NCBI GenBank assembly: GCA_033762295.1
Contig: JANRLW010000108.1
Location: forward strand, 1-29,045
Reading direction: 5' to 3'
Origin: Capsulimonadales bacterium
GTDB taxonomy: Bacteria > Armatimonadota > Armatimonadia > Armatimonadales > Armatimonadaceae
Length of the DNA: 29,045 nucleotides
Part shown: one piece after another, positions 8,111-17,530 of the stretch
How the letters are laid out: each line of letters opens with the position of its first letter
Position numbering within the stretch: the first letter of the stretch is position 1
Notes under the pieces: generated by a model
What the model saw: only the letters and a program-made list of their open reading frames with translations
What the model was told of the DNA's origin: nothing
Database searches by the model: none
Translations under genes and position numbers: made by a program

Positions 8111-9415
8111 TCAGTTTTGCGGGTTTGATTCGCGTACCTCCCGCTGGCTGACCAACAGCAAAAACAGGGTGACCGAAAACGCCAGACCGGAGACGATACG
8201 AATGGTGAGAAACGGACCGTATCGTTCGCTCAGAAAGCCCAGGAGCAACCCGCCGGCCGGCATCAACGCATTGGCGACCAGCGAATAGACGGCCATGACC
8301 CGTCCGCGCAGATAGTTCGGCGCGTCCTCCTGTACCTTGGTATTGGCGCTGGTGGTAAAAACGACCATTCCGATCCCGGCAAAGAACAGGCAGATCAACG
8401 CGAGCGGGTAGGATCGACTCCAGGCAAGAACGGCCAGGAAAGCGCAGAACTGAAGCGCGCCGCCATAGACCAGGAGTCGGCGGGGAATCCGGTTGCCGAC
8501 AGCGACGACCAGCGTTCCGCCGACCGTCGCGCCGATGCCGTTCACCGTGACCATCGTGCCGAACCCGACCGCGCCCTGACCATATCGTTCCGCCAGCACC
8601 GGAAACAGGGTGGAAACCGACAGGACGAAGAGACTGGTGACCCCGATCAGGACCGTGACCCGCCAGAGGCTCGGAAGACTGCCGAGAAAACGGACGCCCT
8701 CCCAGGGCGAGAACATCGTCGCGCCGCCCCGTTCCCGGGTCGCCGTCGGAAGGCGCATCCGGCTCAGGGAGATAAGGACGGCAATAAAAGAAAGCCCGTT
8801 CAAAAAGAAGCAGGCCGCCGCGCTCAACCGGACCAGAGCGATTCCGGCCAGCATCGGACCAAGGAACCGCGCCAGATTGAACCGAAGCGAGTTCAGGGCG
8901 ATCGCGTTCGAGATCGCTCTCGGGTCGTCCACCATTTCGGTGACGAACGCCTGCTGTGCCGGCATATTGAAGGCGTTGACGATGCCGCTCAATCCGGCAA
9001 ACACGGCGATATGCCATCCCTGAATCGGGACCGGGCGGTTCGTCGCCAGAATCGCCAGCGCGAAAGCGAAGATCATCGACAGCGATTGTGTCCAAAGGAG
9101 GATCGTTCGGCGGGGGAAACGGTCCGCCACCTCGCCACCCTTGAAGGCGAACAGGACGTACGGAATCGCCGACGCGCCGGCGACGATGCCGAGCCAAACG
9201 GAGGAACGGGTCAGGTCGTAAACGAGCCATTGCTGCGCGACCGTCTGCATCCAGGTACCGGCGACCGAAACCAGTTGCCCGAAGAAAAACCGTCGAAAGT
9301 TCGGGAACGAGAAGGCATGGAGCGAACCGCCGGGCCGAAAGACAGCGCGGGGGGCGGCCTCACCGCCCGGCGCCTCCTGGGTTTTATGGGCGGGAATCGT
9401 TTCGGAGTCGGACAT
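8111..9415 (-). CDS. MFS transporter (MFS_3/DHA3 EntS-like)
   Basis: About 12 hydrophobic helices; FRRFFFGQLVSVAGTWMQTVAQQWLVYDLT, GGEVADRFPRR motif A, YLRGRVMAVY; ATG 9415 preferred. Confidence 0.93.
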   Translation of the reverse strand: MSDSETIPAHKTQEAPGGEAAPRAVFRPGGSLHAFSFPNFRRFFFGQLVSVAGTWMQTVAQQWLVYDLTRSSVWLGIVAGASAIPYVLFAFKGGEVADRFPRRTILLWTQSLSMIFAFALAILATNRPVPIQGWHIAVFAGLSGIVNAFNMPAQQAFVTEMVDDPRAISNAIALNSLRFNLARFLGPMLAGIALVRLSAAACFFLNGLSFIAVLISLSRMRLPTATRERGGATMFSPWEGVRFLGSLPSLWRVTVLIGVTSLFVLSVSTLFPVLAERYGQGAVGFGTMVTVNGIGATVGGTLVVAVGNRIPRRLLVYGGALQFCAFLAVLAWSRSYPLALICLFFAGIGMVVFTTSANTKVQEDAPNYLRGRVMAVYSLVANALMPAGGLLLGFLSERYGPFLTIRIVSGLAFSVTLFLLLVSQREVRESNPQN

Positions 9416-9512
9416 AACGGGTGATTGCAGGATGTGCGGGACGAAAGTTAGGTTCCCGCCCGTAACCGTTCGCACCTTCCGGCGTTTTTTCGTTCAGCAG
9501 GGAATTTTGGGA

Positions 9513-9537
9513 GTAATGCGTCCGGCGGTCCGGCGTC
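9513..9537 (+). promoter_or_regulatory. Candidate ECF-type (autoregulatory) promoter GTAAT-N16-CGTC
   Basis: Resembles the generic ECF AAC-N16-CGT layout, just upstream of RBS GAAGGAG and the sigma ATG. Confidence 0.45.
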
Positions 9538-9553
9538 CAACAGGTGAAGGAGC

Positions 9554-10213
9554 ATGAAAGGCGTGTCAGTAACTGCGGCAGCTTGGCATCCCGTGGCGGT
9601 CTCCGAGCCGGAGACGGGAGAGGAGACGAGACAACGCGCGGAGGAGGAGATCTGGCTCCGACTCAGCCGGGAGGGCGACCTGGAGGCGTTCGAGCGGATC
9701 TACCGTCGATACGAGGAAGCGGTCTACCGGTATGCGTTTCGCCTTCTTGAGAACGCCGATGAGGCGGACGACATGCGGCAGGAGACTTTTGTCCGCGCCT
9801 ATCGTTCGTTGGCTCGCTTCCGGGGCGACTGTCGGTTGCGGACCTACCTTTTTGCGATCTGCGGCAATCTTTGCCGGGACCGGCTGCGCCGTCATCAGCG
9901 TCGCCCCGAATCCGGTTACGGTATCGCGGTCCCTGAGGACGCGACGCCGTTTCGCGCCGCACAGGAACGGGACGGTGATCCCTGGCTCGGCCTGCAACGA
10001 GCGACCGATGCCGGGCGCGTGCGCTCCGTTCTCGGGCGGATGTCGGCATCCGATCGGGAAATCCTTCTGCTCCGTCATGCCGAAAATCTGGAGATCGAGG
10101 AGATCGCCGTCATTCTCGGTTGCACGCGGGTCAGCGCCCCCGTGCGGCTGTTTCGTGCGCGTCAGCGCTTCAAGGACTTATATCTATCGCTTCTGAAAGA
10201 GGAAGGGGAATAG
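9554..10213 (+). CDS. ECF RNA polymerase sigma factor (sigma70 family)
   Basis: Region 2 (GDLEAFERIYRRY...EADDMRQETFVRAY..LARFRG..RLRTYLFAI..NLCRDRLR) and region 4 (DREILLLR...LEIEEIAVILG...VRLFRARQR). Confidence 0.95.
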   Translation: MKGVSVTAAAWHPVAVSEPETGEETRQRAEEEIWLRLSREGDLEAFERIYRRYEEAVYRYAFRLLENADEADDMRQETFVRAYRSLARFRGDCRLRTYLFAICGNLCRDRLRRHQRRPESGYGIAVPEDATPFRAAQERDGDPWLGLQRATDAGRVRSVLGRMSASDREILLLRHAENLEIEEIAVILGCTRVSAPVRLFRARQRFKDLYLSLLKEEGE

Positions 10214-10220
10214 TTCCGCC

Positions 10221-12629
10221 ATGGGAAGCGAATTTCGCTTTGGCCGTGACTGCGAGAGGATCGCGGAGCGGCTCGAGGAGTATGTCACCGGCGCATTGCC
10301 GGAGGGCGAGGAGCGGGGTGGAATCGCCGCGCATCTGGACGAATGCCGGGCTTGCCGGGAGGCGGCGGCCTCCGTCGCCCAGGTCGGCCGGATGGTCGGA
10401 AGCCTGTCCGCCCTGCCGATACCCGCGCGGCCGGGAAACTGGGACGGGGTAAAGGCGCGTCTGAAAACGACCCCGAACGCCGCTTCGACACCCGCGCCCA
10501 AGTTCGGATTCCGTTTCTGGGGCGTCGGCGTACTGGCGGCCCTGTGCGGAACGGCGGCGATCGTCCTGCCGTCGCCGAACGGACCGTTGCCGACATACTC
10601 ACAGGAGGCCGCCCGCGCCGCAGCCGATACCGCACCCGGACCCAAATGGGCGGATAAGGTGCCGTTGAAAGGCGATCGGCAGGACCTGCGGGGGTATTCG
10701 ACGGTCGGAACCGGGGGGAATACCCTGACCGTCGCGCCGGCGATCTTCAACAAGCCCGCTGACGGAACGTTCCCGGTGGTCGTGGAAGTGGGCAACAACG
10801 GTCCGGCGACCCGCGCCCGACTGACCATCCGTCCCTTCCAGTATACATATAATACCCTCCGGCAGTATACATACGCTCTCCCGCTTCGAGCACAGGGGGT
10901 CTCCCGTTTCCTGCTCTACCCGTCCGTCGGTGAAGTCGTATCGGGGGAGGCGAAGGTCCGCCTGCGCTTTCAACTGGAAGCGCCGGGGCGAGAGCAATCG
11001 ATTAACCTGGAGGAACCGGCGGGCGGACCGCAAACGAGGGTTGTTTACCTTGGGAAACGCTTCCCGGCGGTGTCCCTGAAAAGGACGGCGCGCCGGAACG
11101 GCCGGCCATTCTATATCCCGAGTTCGATGGATAGGGCGACTTCGATCGGTTACCTCCTGCCGGAAAACGCTCCGGATCAGGCGATCGGTTACGACAAAAC
11201 GGACGTTCTCGTGCTGTCCTCCGATGCCCGTCAGTTAAACGATATTCAGTGGCGCGCCATCAAAAACTGGGTGATTACGGGCGGAGCCGTGCTCCTTTCC
11301 GACCCGGAACTGCTCAAACGACCGATCGTCGCCGGGATGTCGCCCGTCTCCGTCGAGACATCACGCCTGGGAACCCGCCTCCTTCCCCGACCCGGCACGG
11401 ACGTCCGCGACCGCCTGATGTCGAGCATGCCGAACGTTCCGAATCCGCGTCTCGTACGACGCGATATCGGGGCGGGAACCGTTCTGTACGCCAACTTCGC
11501 ACTCGATACCGAGGAGTTGCGCGACTGGCCGGGTTACGGCGTCCTGTGGGATCGGATTCACTGGTTCCGCGTCGGACTGAAGGGGCATGCCTACTTCGCA
11601 CCGAAAGCCGGTTTCAGGACGGAAGCCGCCTACCACCGCCTGTGGCAAAACGGTGGCGGAGCGGGAGACGATCCGTTCCATACCGCTTTTCCCAGGATGG
11701 AACCGATCGCTCTCTACTTCGTCGCCTATTTCCTGCTGGCGGCGCCGGTTACCTACTTCGTTCTGAAACGACGGGGACGGCTCAACAACGCCTGGGTCAC
11801 CGGGCCTTGCGTGGCCCTGTTGTTCTCCGTCGGGCTGTTCGCGCTGACGGTTCGGCTGTATCTTCTACCGACCGCGCGCCGAACGAAAGGGGTGGTCGCT
11901 CTCGCGTCCGGCGACCCGCAGGGCGTCTTTCTCGGAACGACCGAGTTTTTCTTCCCGCGCGCCGGTCGGTACACCGCGAACGTCTCCGGATGGGAGTCGG
12001 TGGAGACACGGGTGGGTCCCTACGATCCGAGGGAGCGACCTCTGGAAACCGTAGGCCAGGCGGAAACCGACCGCACGGAGATCGCAATGGACGTCACGAA
12101 CTTGTCGTTCCGTCGTCTCTACCACCGGCAGTCGGTCAACCTGAACGGACCGATCGTTTTCCATCTGCAGCCGGTCGGCGGGGACCGGTACCGGGGATTT
12201 ATCGAGAACCGAACCGGACAGGCGCTCACGGATGCCACCATCGTCATGAGCGGCTGGAAAGCCGTCCGGTGGAGACCGAACCGCACCAACCTGTCTGGAG
12301 TAGAGACAGATCGGAAACCTTTCGTCGGCCTTTTCCAACTCGGTACGTTGCCCGTGGGACGGACGCCGGTGGATCGGGTGTTTAGGAATCCTGATGAAAC
12401 GCGGATCACGCATGACTACCGGGAACTGTTCGAAGGTTTCATAAGTGATCGTGATTATGTCCCTATGCCGCAGTTCGCCCGAATGACCCTGGTGGCAAGG
12501 ATTCCGGGGGGGCAGTTCGGGCTGCCACTCGGTAAGGACGTGGATCGGGAAAGGAACGTCACCGTCATGGTCAACACGGAGAGGGTGGGAGATACCACGG
12601 ACGCGGTCCGGCAAGGAGGACACCGATGA
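10221..12629 (+). CDS. zf-HC2 anti-sigma domain fused to a large ABC-associated membrane protein (GATase-like extracytoplasmic domain plus TM hairpin)
   Basis: N-terminal C..(ERLEEYVTGAL)..HLDECRAC, then TM1; PVVVEVGNNG; GYDKTDVLVL...QWRAIKNWVITGGAVL; GAGTVLY.NF.L....DW; TM pair YFLLAAPVTYFVLKRRGR...AWVTGP. Confidence 0.85.
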   Translation: MGSEFRFGRDCERIAERLEEYVTGALPEGEERGGIAAHLDECRACREAAASVAQVGRMVGSLSALPIPARPGNWDGVKARLKTTPNAASTPAPKFGFRFWGVGVLAALCGTAAIVLPSPNGPLPTYSQEAARAAADTAPGPKWADKVPLKGDRQDLRGYSTVGTGGNTLTVAPAIFNKPADGTFPVVVEVGNNGPATRARLTIRPFQYTYNTLRQYTYALPLRAQGVSRFLLYPSVGEVVSGEAKVRLRFQLEAPGREQSINLEEPAGGPQTRVVYLGKRFPAVSLKRTARRNGRPFYIPSSMDRATSIGYLLPENAPDQAIGYDKTDVLVLSSDARQLNDIQWRAIKNWVITGGAVLLSDPELLKRPIVAGMSPVSVETSRLGTRLLPRPGTDVRDRLMSSMPNVPNPRLVRRDIGAGTVLYANFALDTEELRDWPGYGVLWDRIHWFRVGLKGHAYFAPKAGFRTEAAYHRLWQNGGGAGDDPFHTAFPRMEPIALYFVAYFLLAAPVTYFVLKRRGRLNNAWVTGPCVALLFSVGLFALTVRLYLLPTARRTKGVVALASGDPQGVFLGTTEFFFPRAGRYTANVSGWESVETRVGPYDPRERPLETVGQAETDRTEIAMDVTNLSFRRLYHRQSVNLNGPIVFHLQPVGGDRYRGFIENRTGQALTDATIVMSGWKAVRWRPNRTNLSGVETDRKPFVGLFQLGTLPVGRTPVDRVFRNPDETRITHDYRELFEGFISDRDYVPMPQFARMTLVARIPGGQFGLPLGKDVDRERNVTVMVNTERVGDTTDAVRQGGHR

Positions 12630-13540
12630 AAGAAAGTCTGCGAAATCTCTTCATCGAAAATCCGATGCAGATCGAGACGGTGCGCGCCCTGCGGCGATTC
12701 ACCGTGGCGGGCGGAAGCGCGACCGTCCCTCGACATATGAGCCGGATCTTTTTCGGGCTGGTCAGCGGGTTGTACCTCTGGTTGCTCTTCGCCATCCTTG
12801 CCTACCGGGAGGACACGAGCCTCGGAATCCTCTGGTTTGAGTTCGTGATGCTGACCCTGCTGGTTCCCGGATCGCTTTACGCGTCCATCTCCGGAGAGCG
12901 TGAACGCCTGACCTGGGATTCCCTGATCCTAACCCGCCTGTCACCGGCGAAGATTCTGGTCGGGAAAATCTGCTGGCGGCTCGGAATGGCTCTTTGCTTT
13001 CAGCTCCTGTGCGCCGCTCCGCTAGTTCTGACCCATGCGGCAACAAAATTTCAGACCCAGTATACGTGGGATATGCTCCTCCGGGTCCAGTTCGCTTTGA
13101 CCGCCTGGGCGGTCTTTCTGGCGACGTTCACCCTGTGGGTGTCGGCGTCCACCCGTCGTTCGGCGATCAGTCTCTCGATAGTGACGACCTGCCTGTTCGG
13201 TTTCCTGATCCTGATGCCGTTTCTGTTGGCCGTATTCAGCATCAATGTCGAACTGGACTACTATGGGCCAACCGTGATCGAGTGGCTGGGGTCGTTCGTG
13301 TGGCACCTCCACCCCGTATCCCTGATGCACGGCCTGACCAGCGAAGGACAACCCCCCACGGACCGCTGGCGCGACCTGTTCGTTCCGCTGTCGATCGATC
13401 GGGTCACGGGAAAGTATACTCCGGCGGTTGGCATCTACGATCTCGTGCCGTGGATTTATCTCACGCTGGCCGGTCTCTGTATCGTCGCGACCCTGAAAAA
13501 CCTGACACGACTCGGAATGCCGAACGGGAAGGAGCGGTAG
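12626..13540 (+). CDS. ABC-2 type transporter permease
   Basis: About 6 TM; SISGERERLTWDSLILTRLSPAKILVGK motif; ATGA overlap with upstream gene. Confidence 0.88.
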   Translation: MKESLRNLFIENPMQIETVRALRRFTVAGGSATVPRHMSRIFFGLVSGLYLWLLFAILAYREDTSLGILWFEFVMLTLLVPGSLYASISGERERLTWDSLILTRLSPAKILVGKICWRLGMALCFQLLCAAPLVLTHAATKFQTQYTWDMLLRVQFALTAWAVFLATFTLWVSASTRRSAISLSIVTTCLFGFLILMPFLLAVFSINVELDYYGPTVIEWLGSFVWHLHPVSLMHGLTSEGQPPTDRWRDLFVPLSIDRVTGKYTPAVGIYDLVPWIYLTLAGLCIVATLKNLTRLGMPNGKER

Positions 13541-13544
13541 GCGT

Positions 13545-14489
13545 ATGCTGGTCACCGAAAACCTTCGTAAAACGTACGGCAACCTGGTCGCCGTCGATGG
13601 CATCAACCTGAAACTGCATCCGGGCGATATCTTCGGCTTTATCGGTCCGAACGGCGCGGGCAAGACATCGACCATCAAGATGCTGGCAACCCTGATTACG
13701 CCGACATCCGGGCGGGCGACCATCGACGGGATCGATGTCGTCAAACACCCGCGTGAGGTCCGCCCGTTAATCGGCTATATGCCCGACGCCTTCGGCGTTT
13801 ACGACGATATCAAAGTCTGGGAGTACCTGGACTTCTTTTGCGCCGCCTACGATCCGCCGCGCGAATCGCGTGGGGAGATCATCGATCGGGTGCTGGCATT
13901 GACCGATCTGACGGAGAAGCGGGACGCGTACGTGCAGACACTGTCGCGCGGTATGCAGCAACGGCTTTGCCTCGCGAAGTGCCTGGTGCACGATCCGAAA
14001 GTCCTGTTGCTGGATGAACCCGCCTCCGGCCTGGACCCGCGCGCCCGGATCGATATCAAGCGATTGATCGCCCGGCTCGGGGCCCTCGGCAAAACGATCA
14101 TTGTTTCGTCCCATATCCTCCCGGAACTCGCCGACTTCTGCAACAAGATCGGCATCATGGAGCGGGGGCATCTGCTGGTCTCCGGCGATGTCGGAACCAT
14201 CGTCCGACAGGTGCAGCCGACCCGACAGTTGATCGTGTCCACGGAGGAGGACGGGGACGTGCTGGAACGTCTCCTTCACGACCTGCAGGAACGCCCGATG
14301 GTGGAGAAGGTCGAATACGACCCGGATGCTGACCGCACCGTGTGCGTTGCCTTCAAGGGAAGTCTGGCAGACCAGGCGGAACTGCTGCGCGACCTGATTG
14401 CCGCCGGGCATCGGATCTGCTCGTTCGCGGAGTCGGCGGTCGATCTGGAGGATGTTTTCCTGCGTGTGACGACAGGAAAGGTGCAATAA
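13545..14489 (+). CDS. ABC transporter ATP-binding protein (DrrA/CcmA-like)
   Basis: Walker A GPNGAGKT, signature LSRGMQ, Walker B LLLDEP, H-loop SSH, C-terminal LEDVFL. Confidence 0.96.
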   Translation: MLVTENLRKTYGNLVAVDGINLKLHPGDIFGFIGPNGAGKTSTIKMLATLITPTSGRATIDGIDVVKHPREVRPLIGYMPDAFGVYDDIKVWEYLDFFCAAYDPPRESRGEIIDRVLALTDLTEKRDAYVQTLSRGMQQRLCLAKCLVHDPKVLLLDEPASGLDPRARIDIKRLIARLGALGKTIIVSSHILPELADFCNKIGIMERGHLLVSGDVGTIVRQVQPTRQLIVSTEEDGDVLERLLHDLQERPMVEKVEYDPDADRTVCVAFKGSLADQAELLRDLIAAGHRICSFAESAVDLEDVFLRVTTGKVQ

Positions 14490-14493
14490 AACC

Positions 14494-16110
14494 ATGACAC
14501 GCAACCCCCTTGCCCAACCGTGGCGTCGAATCTCGAATCTCGCGCGGTTCGTCGCCAATCCGGTCGTCGTACGCGACCTGCGTTCGCATCTGCGCAGTCC
14601 CCGGTCCTTCTGGCTGATCGGCGGGTACCTTCTCCTGCTCGGATTTCTGGCCGTCGCCGGATATGCTCAGTCCACCGGGCAGACCTGGTATCGAACGGAC
14701 TTGACGTCCGCCAATCCCGTGGACGTCATCGGGGCGCAGGCGAACCTGGAAGGCTTTTATAATTTCATTTTCGGAACGCTCGCCGGGATGATCCTTCTGG
14801 TCGCTCCGGCGTTGACCGCCCACTCGATCGTCGGTGAACGACAGCGGCAATCGTTCGATCTGCTCGTTACGACCCCCCTGACCGCCGGGCAGATACTGAT
14901 CGGCAAACTGATTTCGTCGATCGCCTTTATGGGATTGCTGCTGATTCTGTCGCTGCCGGCGACCGCACTCTGCCTCCTTCTGGGCGGCGCGAACGTTGCC
15001 GACGTGCTGCGGATCTATTTCGTGCTGGCGGTCGATGCGGTGGTGCTGTCCGCCATCGGACTGTATTTCTCCTGCGCGGTTCGAGTTCCGCTGCTCGCGA
15101 CCGTCTGGACCTATATCTCCGTTCTGGGCTTCACCTTTCTTACCTTTGTCCTGGGCATGTCAATGGACGGGTCGCTGTCGCCCCTGCCCGGGGCACTGCT
15201 CTGGCTCAGTCCGCTGGGGGCGATTAGTCCCGTCTCCGGAAACCATGACGGACTTTACCACACGACGAGGCTGCTGGCTTTCGCGGCTTTCGCCGTCGTT
15301 CTGGTTCGGCAGTTGATCGCCGCCGGAACCTATCGCCTGGGACGGTTCGGAACGGAAAGCGCGGTCTTCCTGCGGAAACAGGCGTTGCTGATCGCAGGCG
15401 TGATGACCCTCGTCGTTACGACCGGTATCTCATCCGAAGAATGGATCGTGAACAGGTTGACACTGTTCCTATTTTTGACCATCGCGCCGTTCCTCCCCGG
15501 GTTATTCGTTCCCGCGACCGGTGAAGCGTTGCCTCCTCCGGTCGGGAACGGCACGACGGACGCGGAGGACAGGGAGGAAGATCGGACGCCGTTTCGATTT
15601 CGCAACCTCTTTCGCCCGGTTCACAGTGGCGCGTTTCCCTGGTATCTGGCGCTGGTCGGGGTCGTTTTCGCCGGGTGGATTGTTGGCACGATCGGCTACG
15701 AAAGGGTCCGCCTGCCAATGCTGGCGGTAGGAACGGCATTCTGCGGATACCTGCTCGGAATGGGAACCCTCGCCTGGGGGTTGTCGCGTCTGGCGGGAAC
15801 GCTGGTATCCGACCTGTCGTCCGCCCGTGCCACCGCGTTCGGTCTCCTGGTGGCGGTTTGCGGCCTGCCGGTCCTGCTACTGACCTTCGCGAGTTCGGAT
15901 TGGACGGCGAATCCGCTCGCGCCGCTCTGGTTGCTCAGTCCCTGGCTGCGGAATAGCCACTATGGCCATGCGGAGGGCCTGATTCGGTCGGGAATCATCG
16001 CCGCTGCCGTCGGATGGGTGGTTTTCGGGATCGACCTGGCTCTGAGCCGTCGGGCGTCGGACCGAACGACCGGTATCCGTCCGACCACGGAACCGCAGAC
16101 CGCCCGGTAG
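14494..16110 (+). CDS. ABC-2 type transporter permease with extended multi-TM C-terminus
   Basis: NPVVVRDLRS.LR; SIVGERQRQSFDLLVTTPLTAGQILIGKL; about 12 hydrophobic segments. Confidence 0.88.
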   Translation: MTRNPLAQPWRRISNLARFVANPVVVRDLRSHLRSPRSFWLIGGYLLLLGFLAVAGYAQSTGQTWYRTDLTSANPVDVIGAQANLEGFYNFIFGTLAGMILLVAPALTAHSIVGERQRQSFDLLVTTPLTAGQILIGKLISSIAFMGLLLILSLPATALCLLLGGANVADVLRIYFVLAVDAVVLSAIGLYFSCAVRVPLLATVWTYISVLGFTFLTFVLGMSMDGSLSPLPGALLWLSPLGAISPVSGNHDGLYHTTRLLAFAAFAVVLVRQLIAAGTYRLGRFGTESAVFLRKQALLIAGVMTLVVTTGISSEEWIVNRLTLFLFLTIAPFLPGLFVPATGEALPPPVGNGTTDAEDREEDRTPFRFRNLFRPVHSGAFPWYLALVGVVFAGWIVGTIGYERVRLPMLAVGTAFCGYLLGMGTLAWGLSRLAGTLVSDLSSARATAFGLLVAVCGLPVLLLTFASSDWTANPLAPLWLLSPWLRNSHYGHAEGLIRSGIIAAAVGWVVFGIDLALSRRASDRTTGIRPTTEPQTAR

Positions 16111-16118
16111 GTCGAAAG

Positions 16119-16152
16119 CGCGGCGGGGCAGGACAACCGCTGTCCCGCCGCG
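16119..16152 (+). terminator. GC-rich hairpin ending the ECF-ABC operon
   Basis: CGCGGCGGGGCAG-N8-CTGTCCCGCCGCG (13 bp, one G-U); no U-tract. Confidence 0.55.
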
Positions 16153-16201
16153 AACCTTCCGAAAACAACCGGCCATCGCCGGACGGAAGGACCACCTCGT
16201 T

Positions 16202-17530
16202 ATGAACGGGCCAATCGTTGCCGATGCGGAGCGCATCACGCTCCATGTTCCCTTTCGTGAGCGGATCGCCGACTGGAACGAACTGCTGGTTCACCAGTGG
16301 CAGGTCGTCGAAATGATCCGCCTTTCCACGGACTCCTCCGATATCGTCGGGTGGGGCGAAACCCTCCCCTACTACACCTGGGGGCGTGTCACCGACGACG
16401 CCATCGCCCGGATTCGAGGCCGCCGTCTGTTCGAACTGCTCGGCGACGACTCCCTGGGCGCGGGTCTGCAGATGGCGGCCTACGATGCTGCCGGAAAGGC
16501 GGCGGGCGTCCCCGTTCACCGACTTTTCAACCTCCCGGTCGTGCGTCGCTCCTGCCCCATCGCCTGGTGGAACCATGATATGCCCGCCGAACTCCTTGCC
16601 GCGGAGGCAAGCGACGCCATCGCCGGGGGATATATCGCCCACAAGATGAAGGCGCGTCCGTGGATCGATCTGTTCGAGCAGATCGACGCGATCAGCGGCG
16701 TGACGCCGCCCCATTATCGAATCGATATGGACTGGAACGATACCCTGCTCTCCGTCGGGAACGCCGCGCGCATCCTCTCGGAACTCGACCGATACGAACG
16801 GGTCGCGCTGTACGAAGGGCCGATCCCGCAGCGGGATATCGAAGGGTATCAGTACCTTCGGCGCAAGGCGCAAAAGCCGATCGCGCTGCATTTCGGGCAT
16901 CCGCCGTTCCCGACCTGTGTCCGGGCGGAGATGTGCGACGGGTTTGTCGTCAGCGGCGGGGTGTCCTCAGTGTTGAATCAGGGCCTGCTGACCTCGGCGT
17001 TCGATAAGTCGCTGTTCCTGCAACTGGTCGGCACCGGGTGGACGACAACCATGATGGCGCACCTCGGTGCGGTCATTCCGGCGGCTCGCTGGCCGGCGGT
17101 CACCTGCATGAACAATTTCAGCGATGATCTTCTGGCGTCGCCGCTCGAACTTCAGGGCGGATATCTCCGCGTGCCGGACGGGCCGGGGCTCGGAGTGGAG
17201 CCGGACCTAGCGGCGATCGAGCGGTTCCGGGTCCCGGAGAATCCGATCGCTCCGGCGTTCCGTCTGCCGCGCCGGTCGTCGATCCTCTCCGTCGAGCGGG
17301 GCGGGGGACGCGTGACCCATTACGCCTCGATGTGGCGCACGACGCTGATCGACGATGAACAGCGACCCGCCGCCACGGTCGGTCCGCAGCTCTGGGACGA
17401 CTTCCTCGCCGGGAACCAGCCGGTCGACGAACGGGGCGTTCGGCTGACCTTCCGCCACGACGACGGTTCGGCGGAATGGAAGGAACTTTACGACCGGGCG
17501 GTACTCGGACCGGTCGCCTCCGGCGTCTGA
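16202..17530 (+). CDS. Mandelate racemase/muconate lactonizing enzyme (enolase superfamily) protein
   Basis: VGWGE, MAAYDAAGKAAGVPVHRL, KMK, DWN, YEGP, GYLRVPDGPGLGVE. Confidence 0.9.
   Translation: MNGPIVADAERITLHVPFRERIADWNELLVHQWQVVEMIRLSTDSSDIVGWGETLPYYTWGRVTDDAIARIRGRRLFELLGDDSLGAGLQMAAYDAAGKAAGVPVHRLFNLPVVRRSCPIAWWNHDMPAELLAAEASDAIAGGYIAHKMKARPWIDLFEQIDAISGVTPPHYRIDMDWNDTLLSVGNAARILSELDRYERVALYEGPIPQRDIEGYQYLRRKAQKPIALHFGHPPFPTCVRAEMCDGFVVSGGVSSVLNQGLLTSAFDKSLFLQLVGTGWTTTMMAHLGAVIPAARWPAVTCMNNFSDDLLASPLELQGGYLRVPDGPGLGVEPDLAAIERFRVPENPIAPAFRLPRRSSILSVERGGGRVTHYASMWRTTLIDDEQRPAATVGPQLWDDFLAGNQPVDERGVRLTFRHDDGSAEWKELYDRAVLGPVASGV

Follow-up and report, generated by a model that had tools for sequence, protein, structure and literature searches.

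A predicted zinc anti-sigma domain fused to a putative ABC-2 transporter accessory protein in an extracytoplasmic function sigma factor operon of Armatimonadota

The genome of an uncultured Capsulimonadales bacterium (phylum Armatimonadota, family Armatimonadaceae; GenBank assembly GCA_033762295.1) contains, on contig JANRLW010000108.1, a five-gene operon in which an extracytoplasmic function (ECF) sigma factor gene is directly followed by a gene that joins a predicted zinc anti-sigma domain to what appears to be the accessory protein of an ATP-binding cassette (ABC) transporter of the ABC-2 type. The whole stretch of DNA analysed, 29,045 nucleotides (nt) of the forward strand, is called the window, and coordinates without another label are positions on its + strand. 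Our preferred reading, to which we give an even chance, is that the operon encodes a self-contained, positively autoregulated ECF sigma/anti-sigma module built into an ABC-2 operon, in which the transporter accessory protein tethers the sigma factor. The domain architecture recurs in related genomes, is strictly linked to the sigma factor gene, and is preceded by conserved upstream elements.

Five open reading frames (ORFs) run in the same direction on the + strand (9554-10213, 10221-12629, 12626-13540, 13545-14489 and 14494-16110) and encode, in order, the ECF sigma factor (219 aa), an 802-aa protein, permease 1 (304 aa), an ATPase (314 aa) and permease 2 (538 aa). The original prediction, made from the sequence and its reading frames, spoke of five tightly coupled genes, and the ORF coordinates reproduce its gene order and its gaps (7, -4, 4 and 4 nt) exactly. 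The sigma factor (9554..10213) is a group 4 sigma-70 protein with matches to Sigma70_r2 (59.2 bits) and Sigma70_r4_2 (39.8 bits) in Pfam and to TIGR02937 (91.4 bits, cut-off 42.9); it consists of the sigma-2 and sigma-4 domains only, as an ECF-type sigma factor does, and reaches no equivalog cut-off in NCBIfam. Its closest relatives of solved structure are 6in7_B (which we take to be AlgU), RpoE of E. coli and SigW.

Residues 1-95 of the 802-aa protein (10221..10505) are predicted to form a cytoplasmic class I zinc anti-sigma domain. The HMMER domain scan that the original prediction proposed finds zf-HC2 at residues 11-46 (E 2.9e-4, 21.3 bits), slightly below the Pfam cut-off in the window protein and above it in nine of 11 fused relatives (23.5-36.2 bits); the NCBIfam model NF052375 (antisigma) gives 35 bits, also below its cut-off. 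Cys11 (codon at 10251-10253), His38, Cys42 and Cys45, the last three within the H-x3-C-x2-C motif HLDECRAC (residues 38-45; 10332-10355), make up the complete four-ligand pattern of zinc-binding anti-sigma (ZAS) proteins. All four positions, and likewise Leu18 and Gly24, are invariant in 12/12 fused representatives (alignment A2), each of which thus has in its N-terminal domain the ZAS combination of an H-x3-C-x2-C motif with an upstream Cys. When a five-sequence profile of the domain was compared with solved structures, the best match was 3hug_B (E 1.2e-4), deposited as 'probable conserved membrane protein' and presumably RslA, followed by 2q1z_B (ChrR, E 3e-3) and 5wuq_C (RsiW, E 5.6e-3); the window domain as a single sequence matched no solved structure. 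Motif, conservation and profile matches together mark the N-terminus as a genuine anti-sigma domain of the class I zinc type, and we infer that it binds the sigma factor encoded immediately upstream.

The domain is followed by one hydrophobic segment, TM1 (approximately residues 99-117; 10515..10571; hydropathy scan and alignment A2), so that the N-terminal arrangement first read from the letters, a ZAS/zf-HC2 motif HLDECRAC with one transmembrane (TM) helix, is borne out. Gly110 of TM1 is invariant among the 12 fused forms. Next comes a variable extracytoplasmic linker (residues 118-169; 10572..10727), which is the least conserved segment of the protein (mean majority fraction 0.285) and varies from 32 to 66 residues among fused forms. 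Unfused relatives have, in place of the anti-sigma domain, TM1 and linker, a probably cleavable signal peptide that runs directly into the first conserved domain. The remainder comprises an extracytoplasmic accessory body (residues 170-480; 10728..11660; delimited from the family alignment), a conserved TM hairpin with the short basic cytoplasmic loop KRRGRLNN (residues 496-547; 11706..11861; delimited by conservation), and a C-terminal extracytoplasmic part (residues 548-802 plus the stop codon; 11862..12629; from alignments and junction sequences). G354, G417 and G419 of the body are invariant in a 70-sequence family alignment, and residues 326-409 (11196-11447) resemble DUF4350 and DUF7408 (DUF4350 19.6 bits, cut-off 30.4). 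Conservation peaks in the hairpin, where the mean majority fraction is 0.58 across the family and 0.73 among fused forms and where W525 and P529 are invariant in 70/70 sequences. Hydropathy helices near residues 99-117, 496-514 and 526-544 are consistent with a topology in which the N-terminus is inside, residues 118-495 are outside, a short loop is inside, and the protein from about residue 545 to 802 is outside.

An exhaustive HMMER search with the 802-aa protein returned 1,228 representatives at E<=1e-3, of which 348 have E<=1e-10, while a word-index protein search found one distant match with the single protein and one with the 70-sequence alignment. N-terminal forms were counted in the best 150 of the 1,228 representatives: 12 (query included) carry the zinc motif, with H-x3-C-x2-C at positions 34-41 and lengths of 780-929 aa; two are extended at the N-terminus but have no zinc motif; and the others, mostly 590-730 aa long, share the TM hairpin and have either a hydrophobic N-terminal segment or no such segment called. 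According to the original prediction, related proteins usually begin with a signal sequence and are encoded next to ABC-2 genes. The first point agrees with these N-termini and the second with gene neighbourhoods, in which an ABC ATPase gene directly adjoins the family gene in 17/20 loci that represent different families of the phylum, six of seven distant paralogue loci have an adjoining ABC ATPase or permease gene, and the order accessory, permease 1, ATPase, permease 2 is kept at orthologous loci. The motifs quoted in that prediction (PVVVEVGNNG; GYD...LVL...WV..GG; YFLLAAPVTYFVLKRRGR..W.T.P) are all found in the translation, at the most conserved positions of the family. Two close relatives of the fused forms, P0006 and P0008, start at a conserved M-G-x-x-T-V-G (query residue 158) and have no hydrophobic N-terminus; these are probably cut gene calls, the alternative being an internal start.

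The family resembles several named ones from a distance. Across the 70-sequence alignment, DUF4350 matches 38/70 members, DUF7408 17/70, zf-HC2 11/70 and ABC_transp_aux (the GldG family) 4/70; in a table of 20 proteins every DUF4350 match is below the cut-off, and one unfused relative reaches the DUF7408 cut-off (27.9 versus 27). The 802-aa protein itself has no match to ABC_transp_aux (PF09822) or DUF7408 (PF24157) in the Pfam scan, and curated cut-offs place it in none of GldG/ABC_transp_aux, DUF4350 (PF14258) and DUF7408. These scores below cut-off indicate that the accessory family is distinct from, and distantly related to, DUF4350, DUF7408 and GldG. In public sources the proteins are named only 'zf-HC2 domain-containing protein' or 'hypothetical protein'. 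The conserved body, the central TM hairpin and the ABC-2 neighbours support the assignment of the remainder of the 802-aa protein to this uncharacterised family of accessory proteins tied to ABC-2 transporters. At 49 positions the other 69 family members show at least 85% conservation, and the 802-aa protein agrees at 46 of them; as it is also the sole family member found in its genome, its accessory function is presumably retained.

The three genes that follow encode an ABC-2 transporter, with one ABC ATPase and two permeases above the ABC2_membrane_2 cut-off of Pfam (27.2 bits). Permease 1 (12626..13540) scores 31.2 bits and permease 2 (14494..16110) scores 39.9 bits; the ATPase (13545..14489) is DrrA/GldA-like, with 100.7 bits for ABC_tran and, in NCBIfam, 244 bits for TIGR01188 (drrA) and 209 bits for GldA, each below the equivalog cut-off, and it is 67-79% identical to its orthologues. 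The two permeases are paralogues (29% identity over 164 residues, E 2e-8), which suggests that the membrane part of the transporter is a heterodimer of permeases 1 and 2. At its C-terminus permease 2 carries about 250 aa of additional membrane sequence (residues ~290-538; 15364-16110), which is kept in orthologues (alignment A5) and matches no Pfam family; a permease 2 profile gave zero matches to solved structures in the Protein Data Bank (PDB), and the distant paralogue systems have single permeases of about 280 aa. The permease 1 start codon overlaps the accessory stop codon in an ATGA, and such an overlap (ATGA or GTGA) is present in the window and in eight of nine other orthologous loci, fused and unfused; the ninth, where the gene is split, has TTGA at this junction. 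The GGAGG ribosome-binding site of permease 1 lies inside the last accessory codons. Stop-start coupling of this kind is typical of subunits produced in fixed proportion, and may indicate such a relation here. A Gly-Gly near the accessory C-terminus (12613-12629) coincides with the GGAGG site, so that apparent protein conservation there may be imposed by the nucleotide signal.

The fused protein recurs, with the same five-gene order, in G010, G003, G002, G014 and G012, and in G018 and G021 the sigma gene and the extended accessory gene are found at contig ends; by their named records, these genomes belong to Armatimonadota. When metagenomes were scanned for related loci with the 12 fused forms, two further, independent fused loci (L083, L084) came to light, along with two that nearly duplicate known ones. 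In 10/10 distinct loci that have an extended accessory gene and upstream DNA available, the sigma gene immediately precedes that gene (the window, L021, L022, L027, L028, L030, L031, L033, L083 and L084). Among 20 family loci sampled across the phylum, 0/20 have a sigma match and 0/20 the zinc motif, and the zinc motif is found in 0/7 distant paralogues. In a sample of 301 genomes of the phylum, 59 match at E<=1e-15, with the N-terminus covered only within the window's own family; among the genomes sampled, the fused form is confined to this one family of Armatimonadota.

The distribution of the sigma factor mirrors that of the extended accessory gene. Orthologues with 47-59% identity occur in eight of 60 related genomes searched, the next-best matches having at most 40%, and seven of the eight carry the extended accessory gene. 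In the eighth, G001 (L053, C197:24073-27534), the sigma gene is truncated near residue 189 and is followed by unrelated regulator genes, with no accessory or ABC genes; given the truncation and the missing ABC cluster, this locus looks like a decayed remnant of the system. In one genus, g2 (L030:3380-3619 (-), L031:7722-7961 (-) and L033:497-736 (+)), the sigma gene is still upstream and about 55 residues of cytoplasmic extension remain at the N-terminus of the accessory protein. This extension has only the juxta-membrane motif P-x-R-x-G-x-(W/F)-x-x-V-x-x-R-L in common with the zinc forms, has a conserved motif of its own, RLR(D/E)WG.AER, and aligns with the zinc anti-sigma profile over 29 columns at 8% probability (hhalign). 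The window sigma factor has an N-terminal extension of about 35 residues before region 2 (residues 1-35; 9554-9660) with the motif A-A-W-(Q/H)-x-V, which is present in sigma orthologues paired with zinc-motif forms and absent from g2.

In trees of the shared body (residues 170 onward; IQ-TREE), a well-supported group of 23 rows contains all 14 extended forms as well as some unfused ones. In a second tree, from which P0006, P0008, P0051 and P0055 were left out as proteins whose N-termini look cut by the gene call, constraining the 14 extended forms to one clade was not rejected (delta lnL 2.4, p-AU 0.44), and a single origin of the fused form is compatible with the data. Two genomes of the same genus differ at the same locus, G002 (L027) having the fused protein and sigma factor and G013 (L023) an unfused protein without the sigma factor. 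Identity between the two is 90-91% for the outer flanking genes (one per side), 68% for the upstream gene next to the cassette, 84% for the ATPase, 54% for permease 2, 50% for permease 1 and 34% for the accessory protein. The difference looks like replacement of the whole cassette and not a simple deletion, and the comparison indicates a much higher rate of evolution in the membrane parts than in the ATPase.

Two promoter-like elements lie upstream of the sigma gene. P1 (9461..9486) is an ECF-type element, CGTAAC-N16-CGTT, at a conserved position; AAC and CGT cores are typical of ECF promoters, and P1 has both. P2 (9513..9540) is GTAATG-N15-CGTCCAA and ends 13 nt before the sigma start codon. 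Across loci the consensus is CGTAAC-N16/17-CGTT for P1 and GTAA(T/G)(G/C)-N15/16-CGTC(T/C)AA for P2, with divergent surrounding sequences and a spacing of 6-52 nt between the two in the seven loci measured. Both elements are present in 7/7 defining loci and in 2/2 independent metagenome loci, and in 0/5 unfused loci. Each pattern occurs in fewer than 4 of 10,000 mononucleotide-shuffled stretches, and the P2 pattern has a single match in the whole 5.16-Mb genome; in G002 and G003 the sole genome-wide match to a degenerate P2 pattern is the sigma operon. A scan for sigma-70-type promoters in 9300-16400 found none, and an Rfam scan of the window and around P1 and P2 found no match. Most ECF sigma factors autoregulate, and conserved upstream motifs are a published route to their promoters (PMC3817407). 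From the placement of these elements, positive autoregulation of the module via one or both of them is the likeliest arrangement.

Other targets of the sigma factor were sought with relaxed patterns. GTAAY-N16-18-CGTYYAA has four matches in this genome, and the degenerate pattern GTAAYN15-17CGTCYAA, which cannot match the element of G012 itself (GTAAGG), was not enriched over a reversed-pattern control in five related genomes. The regulon search found no common downstream gene and no conserved second target; the operon is therefore the likeliest main output of the sigma factor. One relaxed P2-like element in the window's genome (GTAACC-N17-CGTCTAA; G000, C117, ~8368, - strand) precedes, by 45 nt, a 676-aa ORF whose Cys-rich start leads into a kinase-like glycine loop, and has no counterpart in the five related genomes.

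The closest known arrangement is the sigY-yxlCDEFG operon of Bacillus subtilis, an autoregulated operon with an ECF sigma factor, a negative regulator encoded next downstream, an ATPase (YxlF) and a permease (YxlG) (PMC4105308, PMC11466899). Both operons combine an ECF sigma factor, a negative regulator and an ABC transporter, but in sigY the anti-sigma factors are small separate proteins such as YxlC, whereas here the anti-sigma domain is fused to a large accessory protein, and the sigY operon has no protein of a DUF4350/GldG-like family. YxlD is a second small anti-sigma protein of the sigY operon. The window sigma factor is not a SigY equivalog (NF007216, 64.5 bits, cut-off 194). Class I anti-sigma factors of the RsiW/RslA/ChrR type share the N-terminal H-x3-C-x2-C with an upstream Cys, the TM segment that follows and the position directly after the sigma gene; here, in place of a small sensor domain, there is a transporter accessory part of about 685 residues with two more TM helices. 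In the gliding system GldA-GldF-GldG, as in the window, an ABC-2 ATPase, a permease and a large accessory membrane protein are encoded together; the ATPase GldA localises to the membrane only when both GldF and GldG are present (review PMC9127263), and GldA and GldF are the best or near-best named matches of the window ATPase and permease 2 in NCBIfam, below curated cut-offs. The accessory family of the window differs in having a central TM hairpin, and no GldG relative with an anti-sigma domain was found in the literature searched.

Other systems are alike in logic or neighbourhood. With BceRS-BceAB the likeness is functional and hypothetical, namely that a transporter would be both sensor and regulated output; the Bce systems use a histidine kinase, a response regulator and a permease with an FtsX domain, whereas here there are an ECF sigma factor, a zinc anti-sigma domain, ABC-2 permeases and a separate accessory protein, and Pfam and NCBIfam detect no FtsX or kinase domain in the five proteins. 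In FecA-FecR-FecI a transport protein likewise reports to an anti-sigma factor, but the two are separate proteins in different membranes. ECF258 and ECF234 (PMC7826278) and ECF257 (PMC8999054) are noted as associated with ABC transporters, as sigma genes conserved next to ABC transporter genes; they are Firmicutes groups for which only the gene neighbourhood is described, and the main text of PMC7826278 does not mention Armatimonadetes. The literature search returned no paper linking DUF4350 with an anti-sigma factor, no relevant paper joining GldG with an anti-sigma factor or ABC-2 transporters with anti-sigma and ECF factors, and, among its top-ranked papers, none on Armatimonadetes with ECF or anti-sigma factors. 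The suggestion in the original prediction that such coupling had not been described therefore needs narrowing: ECF/ABC operons or neighbourhoods are in print (sigY, ECF234, ECF257, ECF258), while a covalent fusion of an anti-sigma factor to a transporter accessory protein was not found in the literature searched, although the supplement of PMC7826278 may list an ECF group with such a neighbourhood.

On the preferred reading, a class I zinc anti-sigma domain, a TM helix and a flexible linker would have taken the place of the signal peptide on an accessory protein, leaving the accessory part intact and probably still a subunit of a transporter expected to contain two copies of the ATPase together with permease 1 and permease 2. 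Membership of the accessory protein in the ABC complex is suggested indirectly by the stop-start overlap, the conservation of the hairpin, the sole family copy in the genome and the precedent of GldG. In the resting state the cytoplasmic domain would keep the sigma factor at the membrane. A cue, which may be a substrate or an envelope perturbation, would reach the extracytoplasmic body of the accessory protein or its transporter and would inactivate the tether, most likely by proteolysis in two steps, a first cut in or close to the exposed variable linker and a second within the membrane, in TM1. The freed sigma factor would then transcribe its own operon from the upstream element or elements, so that more transporter and fresh anti-sigma domain would be made and the system would be reset. 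Release by proteolysis fits better than purely allosteric coupling because TM1 replaces a signal peptide and is followed by a variable linker of 32-66 residues. Peptidase_M50 genes (the site-2-protease family) are present in the genome; being near-universal, they do not discriminate between models.

Several results weigh against this reading. The zf-HC2 score of the window protein is 0.9 bits below the Pfam gathering cut-off of 22.2 bits. The accessory family has no characterised member: its clusters in the ESM Atlas are labelled only 'hypothetical' or 'DUF4350 domain-containing' (Chloroflexota, Planctomycetota, Bacillota, Binatota), and the whole-family profile has no match in the PDB at E <0.1. 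The g2 genus keeps the sigma factor and an N-terminal extension with neither the zinc motif nor most of the anti-sigma domain, so the tether there may act differently or may be dispensable. As for the upstream elements, P1 and P2 were defined on seven of the nine loci in which they were counted, and the bare P1 pattern has 29 matches in the 5.16-Mb genome, by a rough estimate with no computed control about the chance level, so the evidence for P1 is its conserved position and not its rarity. P2 lies so close to the start codon, at only 13 nt, that its role as a promoter is uncertain, and it may be something else.

Other explanations of the same architecture can be ranked from the more to the less probable, beginning with one that goes further than the tether. 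The transporter complex itself may be the sensor, its working state (substrate load or ATP-driven cycling) governing the amount of free sigma factor and, through it, the production of transporter; we hold this to be unlikely, though worth keeping in view, since, if it is true, flux sensing of the Bce type would have its first counterpart among ECF sigma factors, and for the first time an anti-sigma factor would form a covalent part of a transporter. The strict form of this idea, flux sensing as put forward in the original prediction, seems to us rather unlikely; in it, the membrane helices would relay the ATP-driven conformational cycle of the transporter to the anti-sigma domain, with a reversible, proteolysis-free release of sigma factor scaled to transport, and the system would be an ECF analogue of BceAB-BceS. 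The anti-sigma domain does belong covalently to a protein whose gene shows translational coupling to a permease gene, the TM hairpin with its basic cytoplasmic loop is highly conserved, and an operon that is apparently the main or only target of its sigma factor would have the need-based logic of the Bce systems. However, TM1 is an add-on in place of a signal peptide and is poorly conserved save for one glycine, a variable linker of this length between TM1 and the body would be a poor conduit for conformational signals, and neither an FtsX-type permease nor a histidine kinase, the defining Bce components, is among the five proteins.

It is improbable that the accessory body now serves as a conventional ligand-binding sensor, recruited for that role and detached from the transporter, with the ABC genes merely a regulated output. 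Class I anti-sigma domains do combine with many C-terminal sensor domains (PMC7406223), but such a protein would leave the transporter without a partner, as no other copy of the accessory family was found in the genome to serve it; moreover, the protein retains 46/49 of the most conserved family positions, TM hairpin included, and its translational coupling to permease 1 is the same as in unfused orthologues. We are more doubtful still of a cytoplasmic zinc site that acts as a thiol or oxidative sensor, as in RsrA or RslA, with the accessory protein only a membrane anchor that keeps sigma factor and transporter in step. The four ligand positions are invariant in 12/12 fused forms, with a spacing that matches RsrA, and the best solved match is RslA, which is reported to be redox-responsive; yet zinc in RsiW-like membrane-bound anti-sigma factors is structural, this explanation offers no reason for fusion to this particular protein, and the g2 genus has lost the zinc motif while keeping the sigma factor and the fusion. 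Lastly, an error of assembly or annotation (two genes joined by a chimeric contig, a missed stop codon or a frameshift) can be set aside almost entirely, as the protein is a single open frame of 802 codons and the same architecture occurs in 12 of the best 150 of 1,228 representatives from different sources and in other genomes; its recurrence in several genera and on independent metagenome contigs rules out the chimera or missed stop codon against which the original prediction had cautioned.

The genes on the other side of the sigma gene vary. In the window, an MFS_3 family transporter gene (8111-9475, - strand) is divergent from the sigma gene; the start of its longest ORF is 78 nt from the sigma start, and that ORF would overlap P1. 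This neighbour is not kept at other fused loci, and in L022, L027 and L028 the upstream ORF instead ends in a common W-W-H-(Y/F)-D motif, probably that of D-Ala-D-Ala dipeptidases.

Pairs of ECF sigma and anti-sigma factors are one of the three main signalling schemes of bacteria. The system described here is confined to one family of uncultured bacteria, and its mechanism beyond the architecture is what we infer; within these bounds, the sensor part is identifiable as the probable accessory subunit of a given ABC-2 transporter, and the regulated output is apparently that same transporter. It thus offers a compact five-gene system for asking how a transporter reports its state to transcription. 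It also gives a first functional handle on an uncharacterised accessory family that has more than 1,000 representatives in Chloroflexota, Planctomycetota, Bacillota and Armatimonadota, and an inducer of the sigma factor would be a candidate for the substrate or cue of the transporter.

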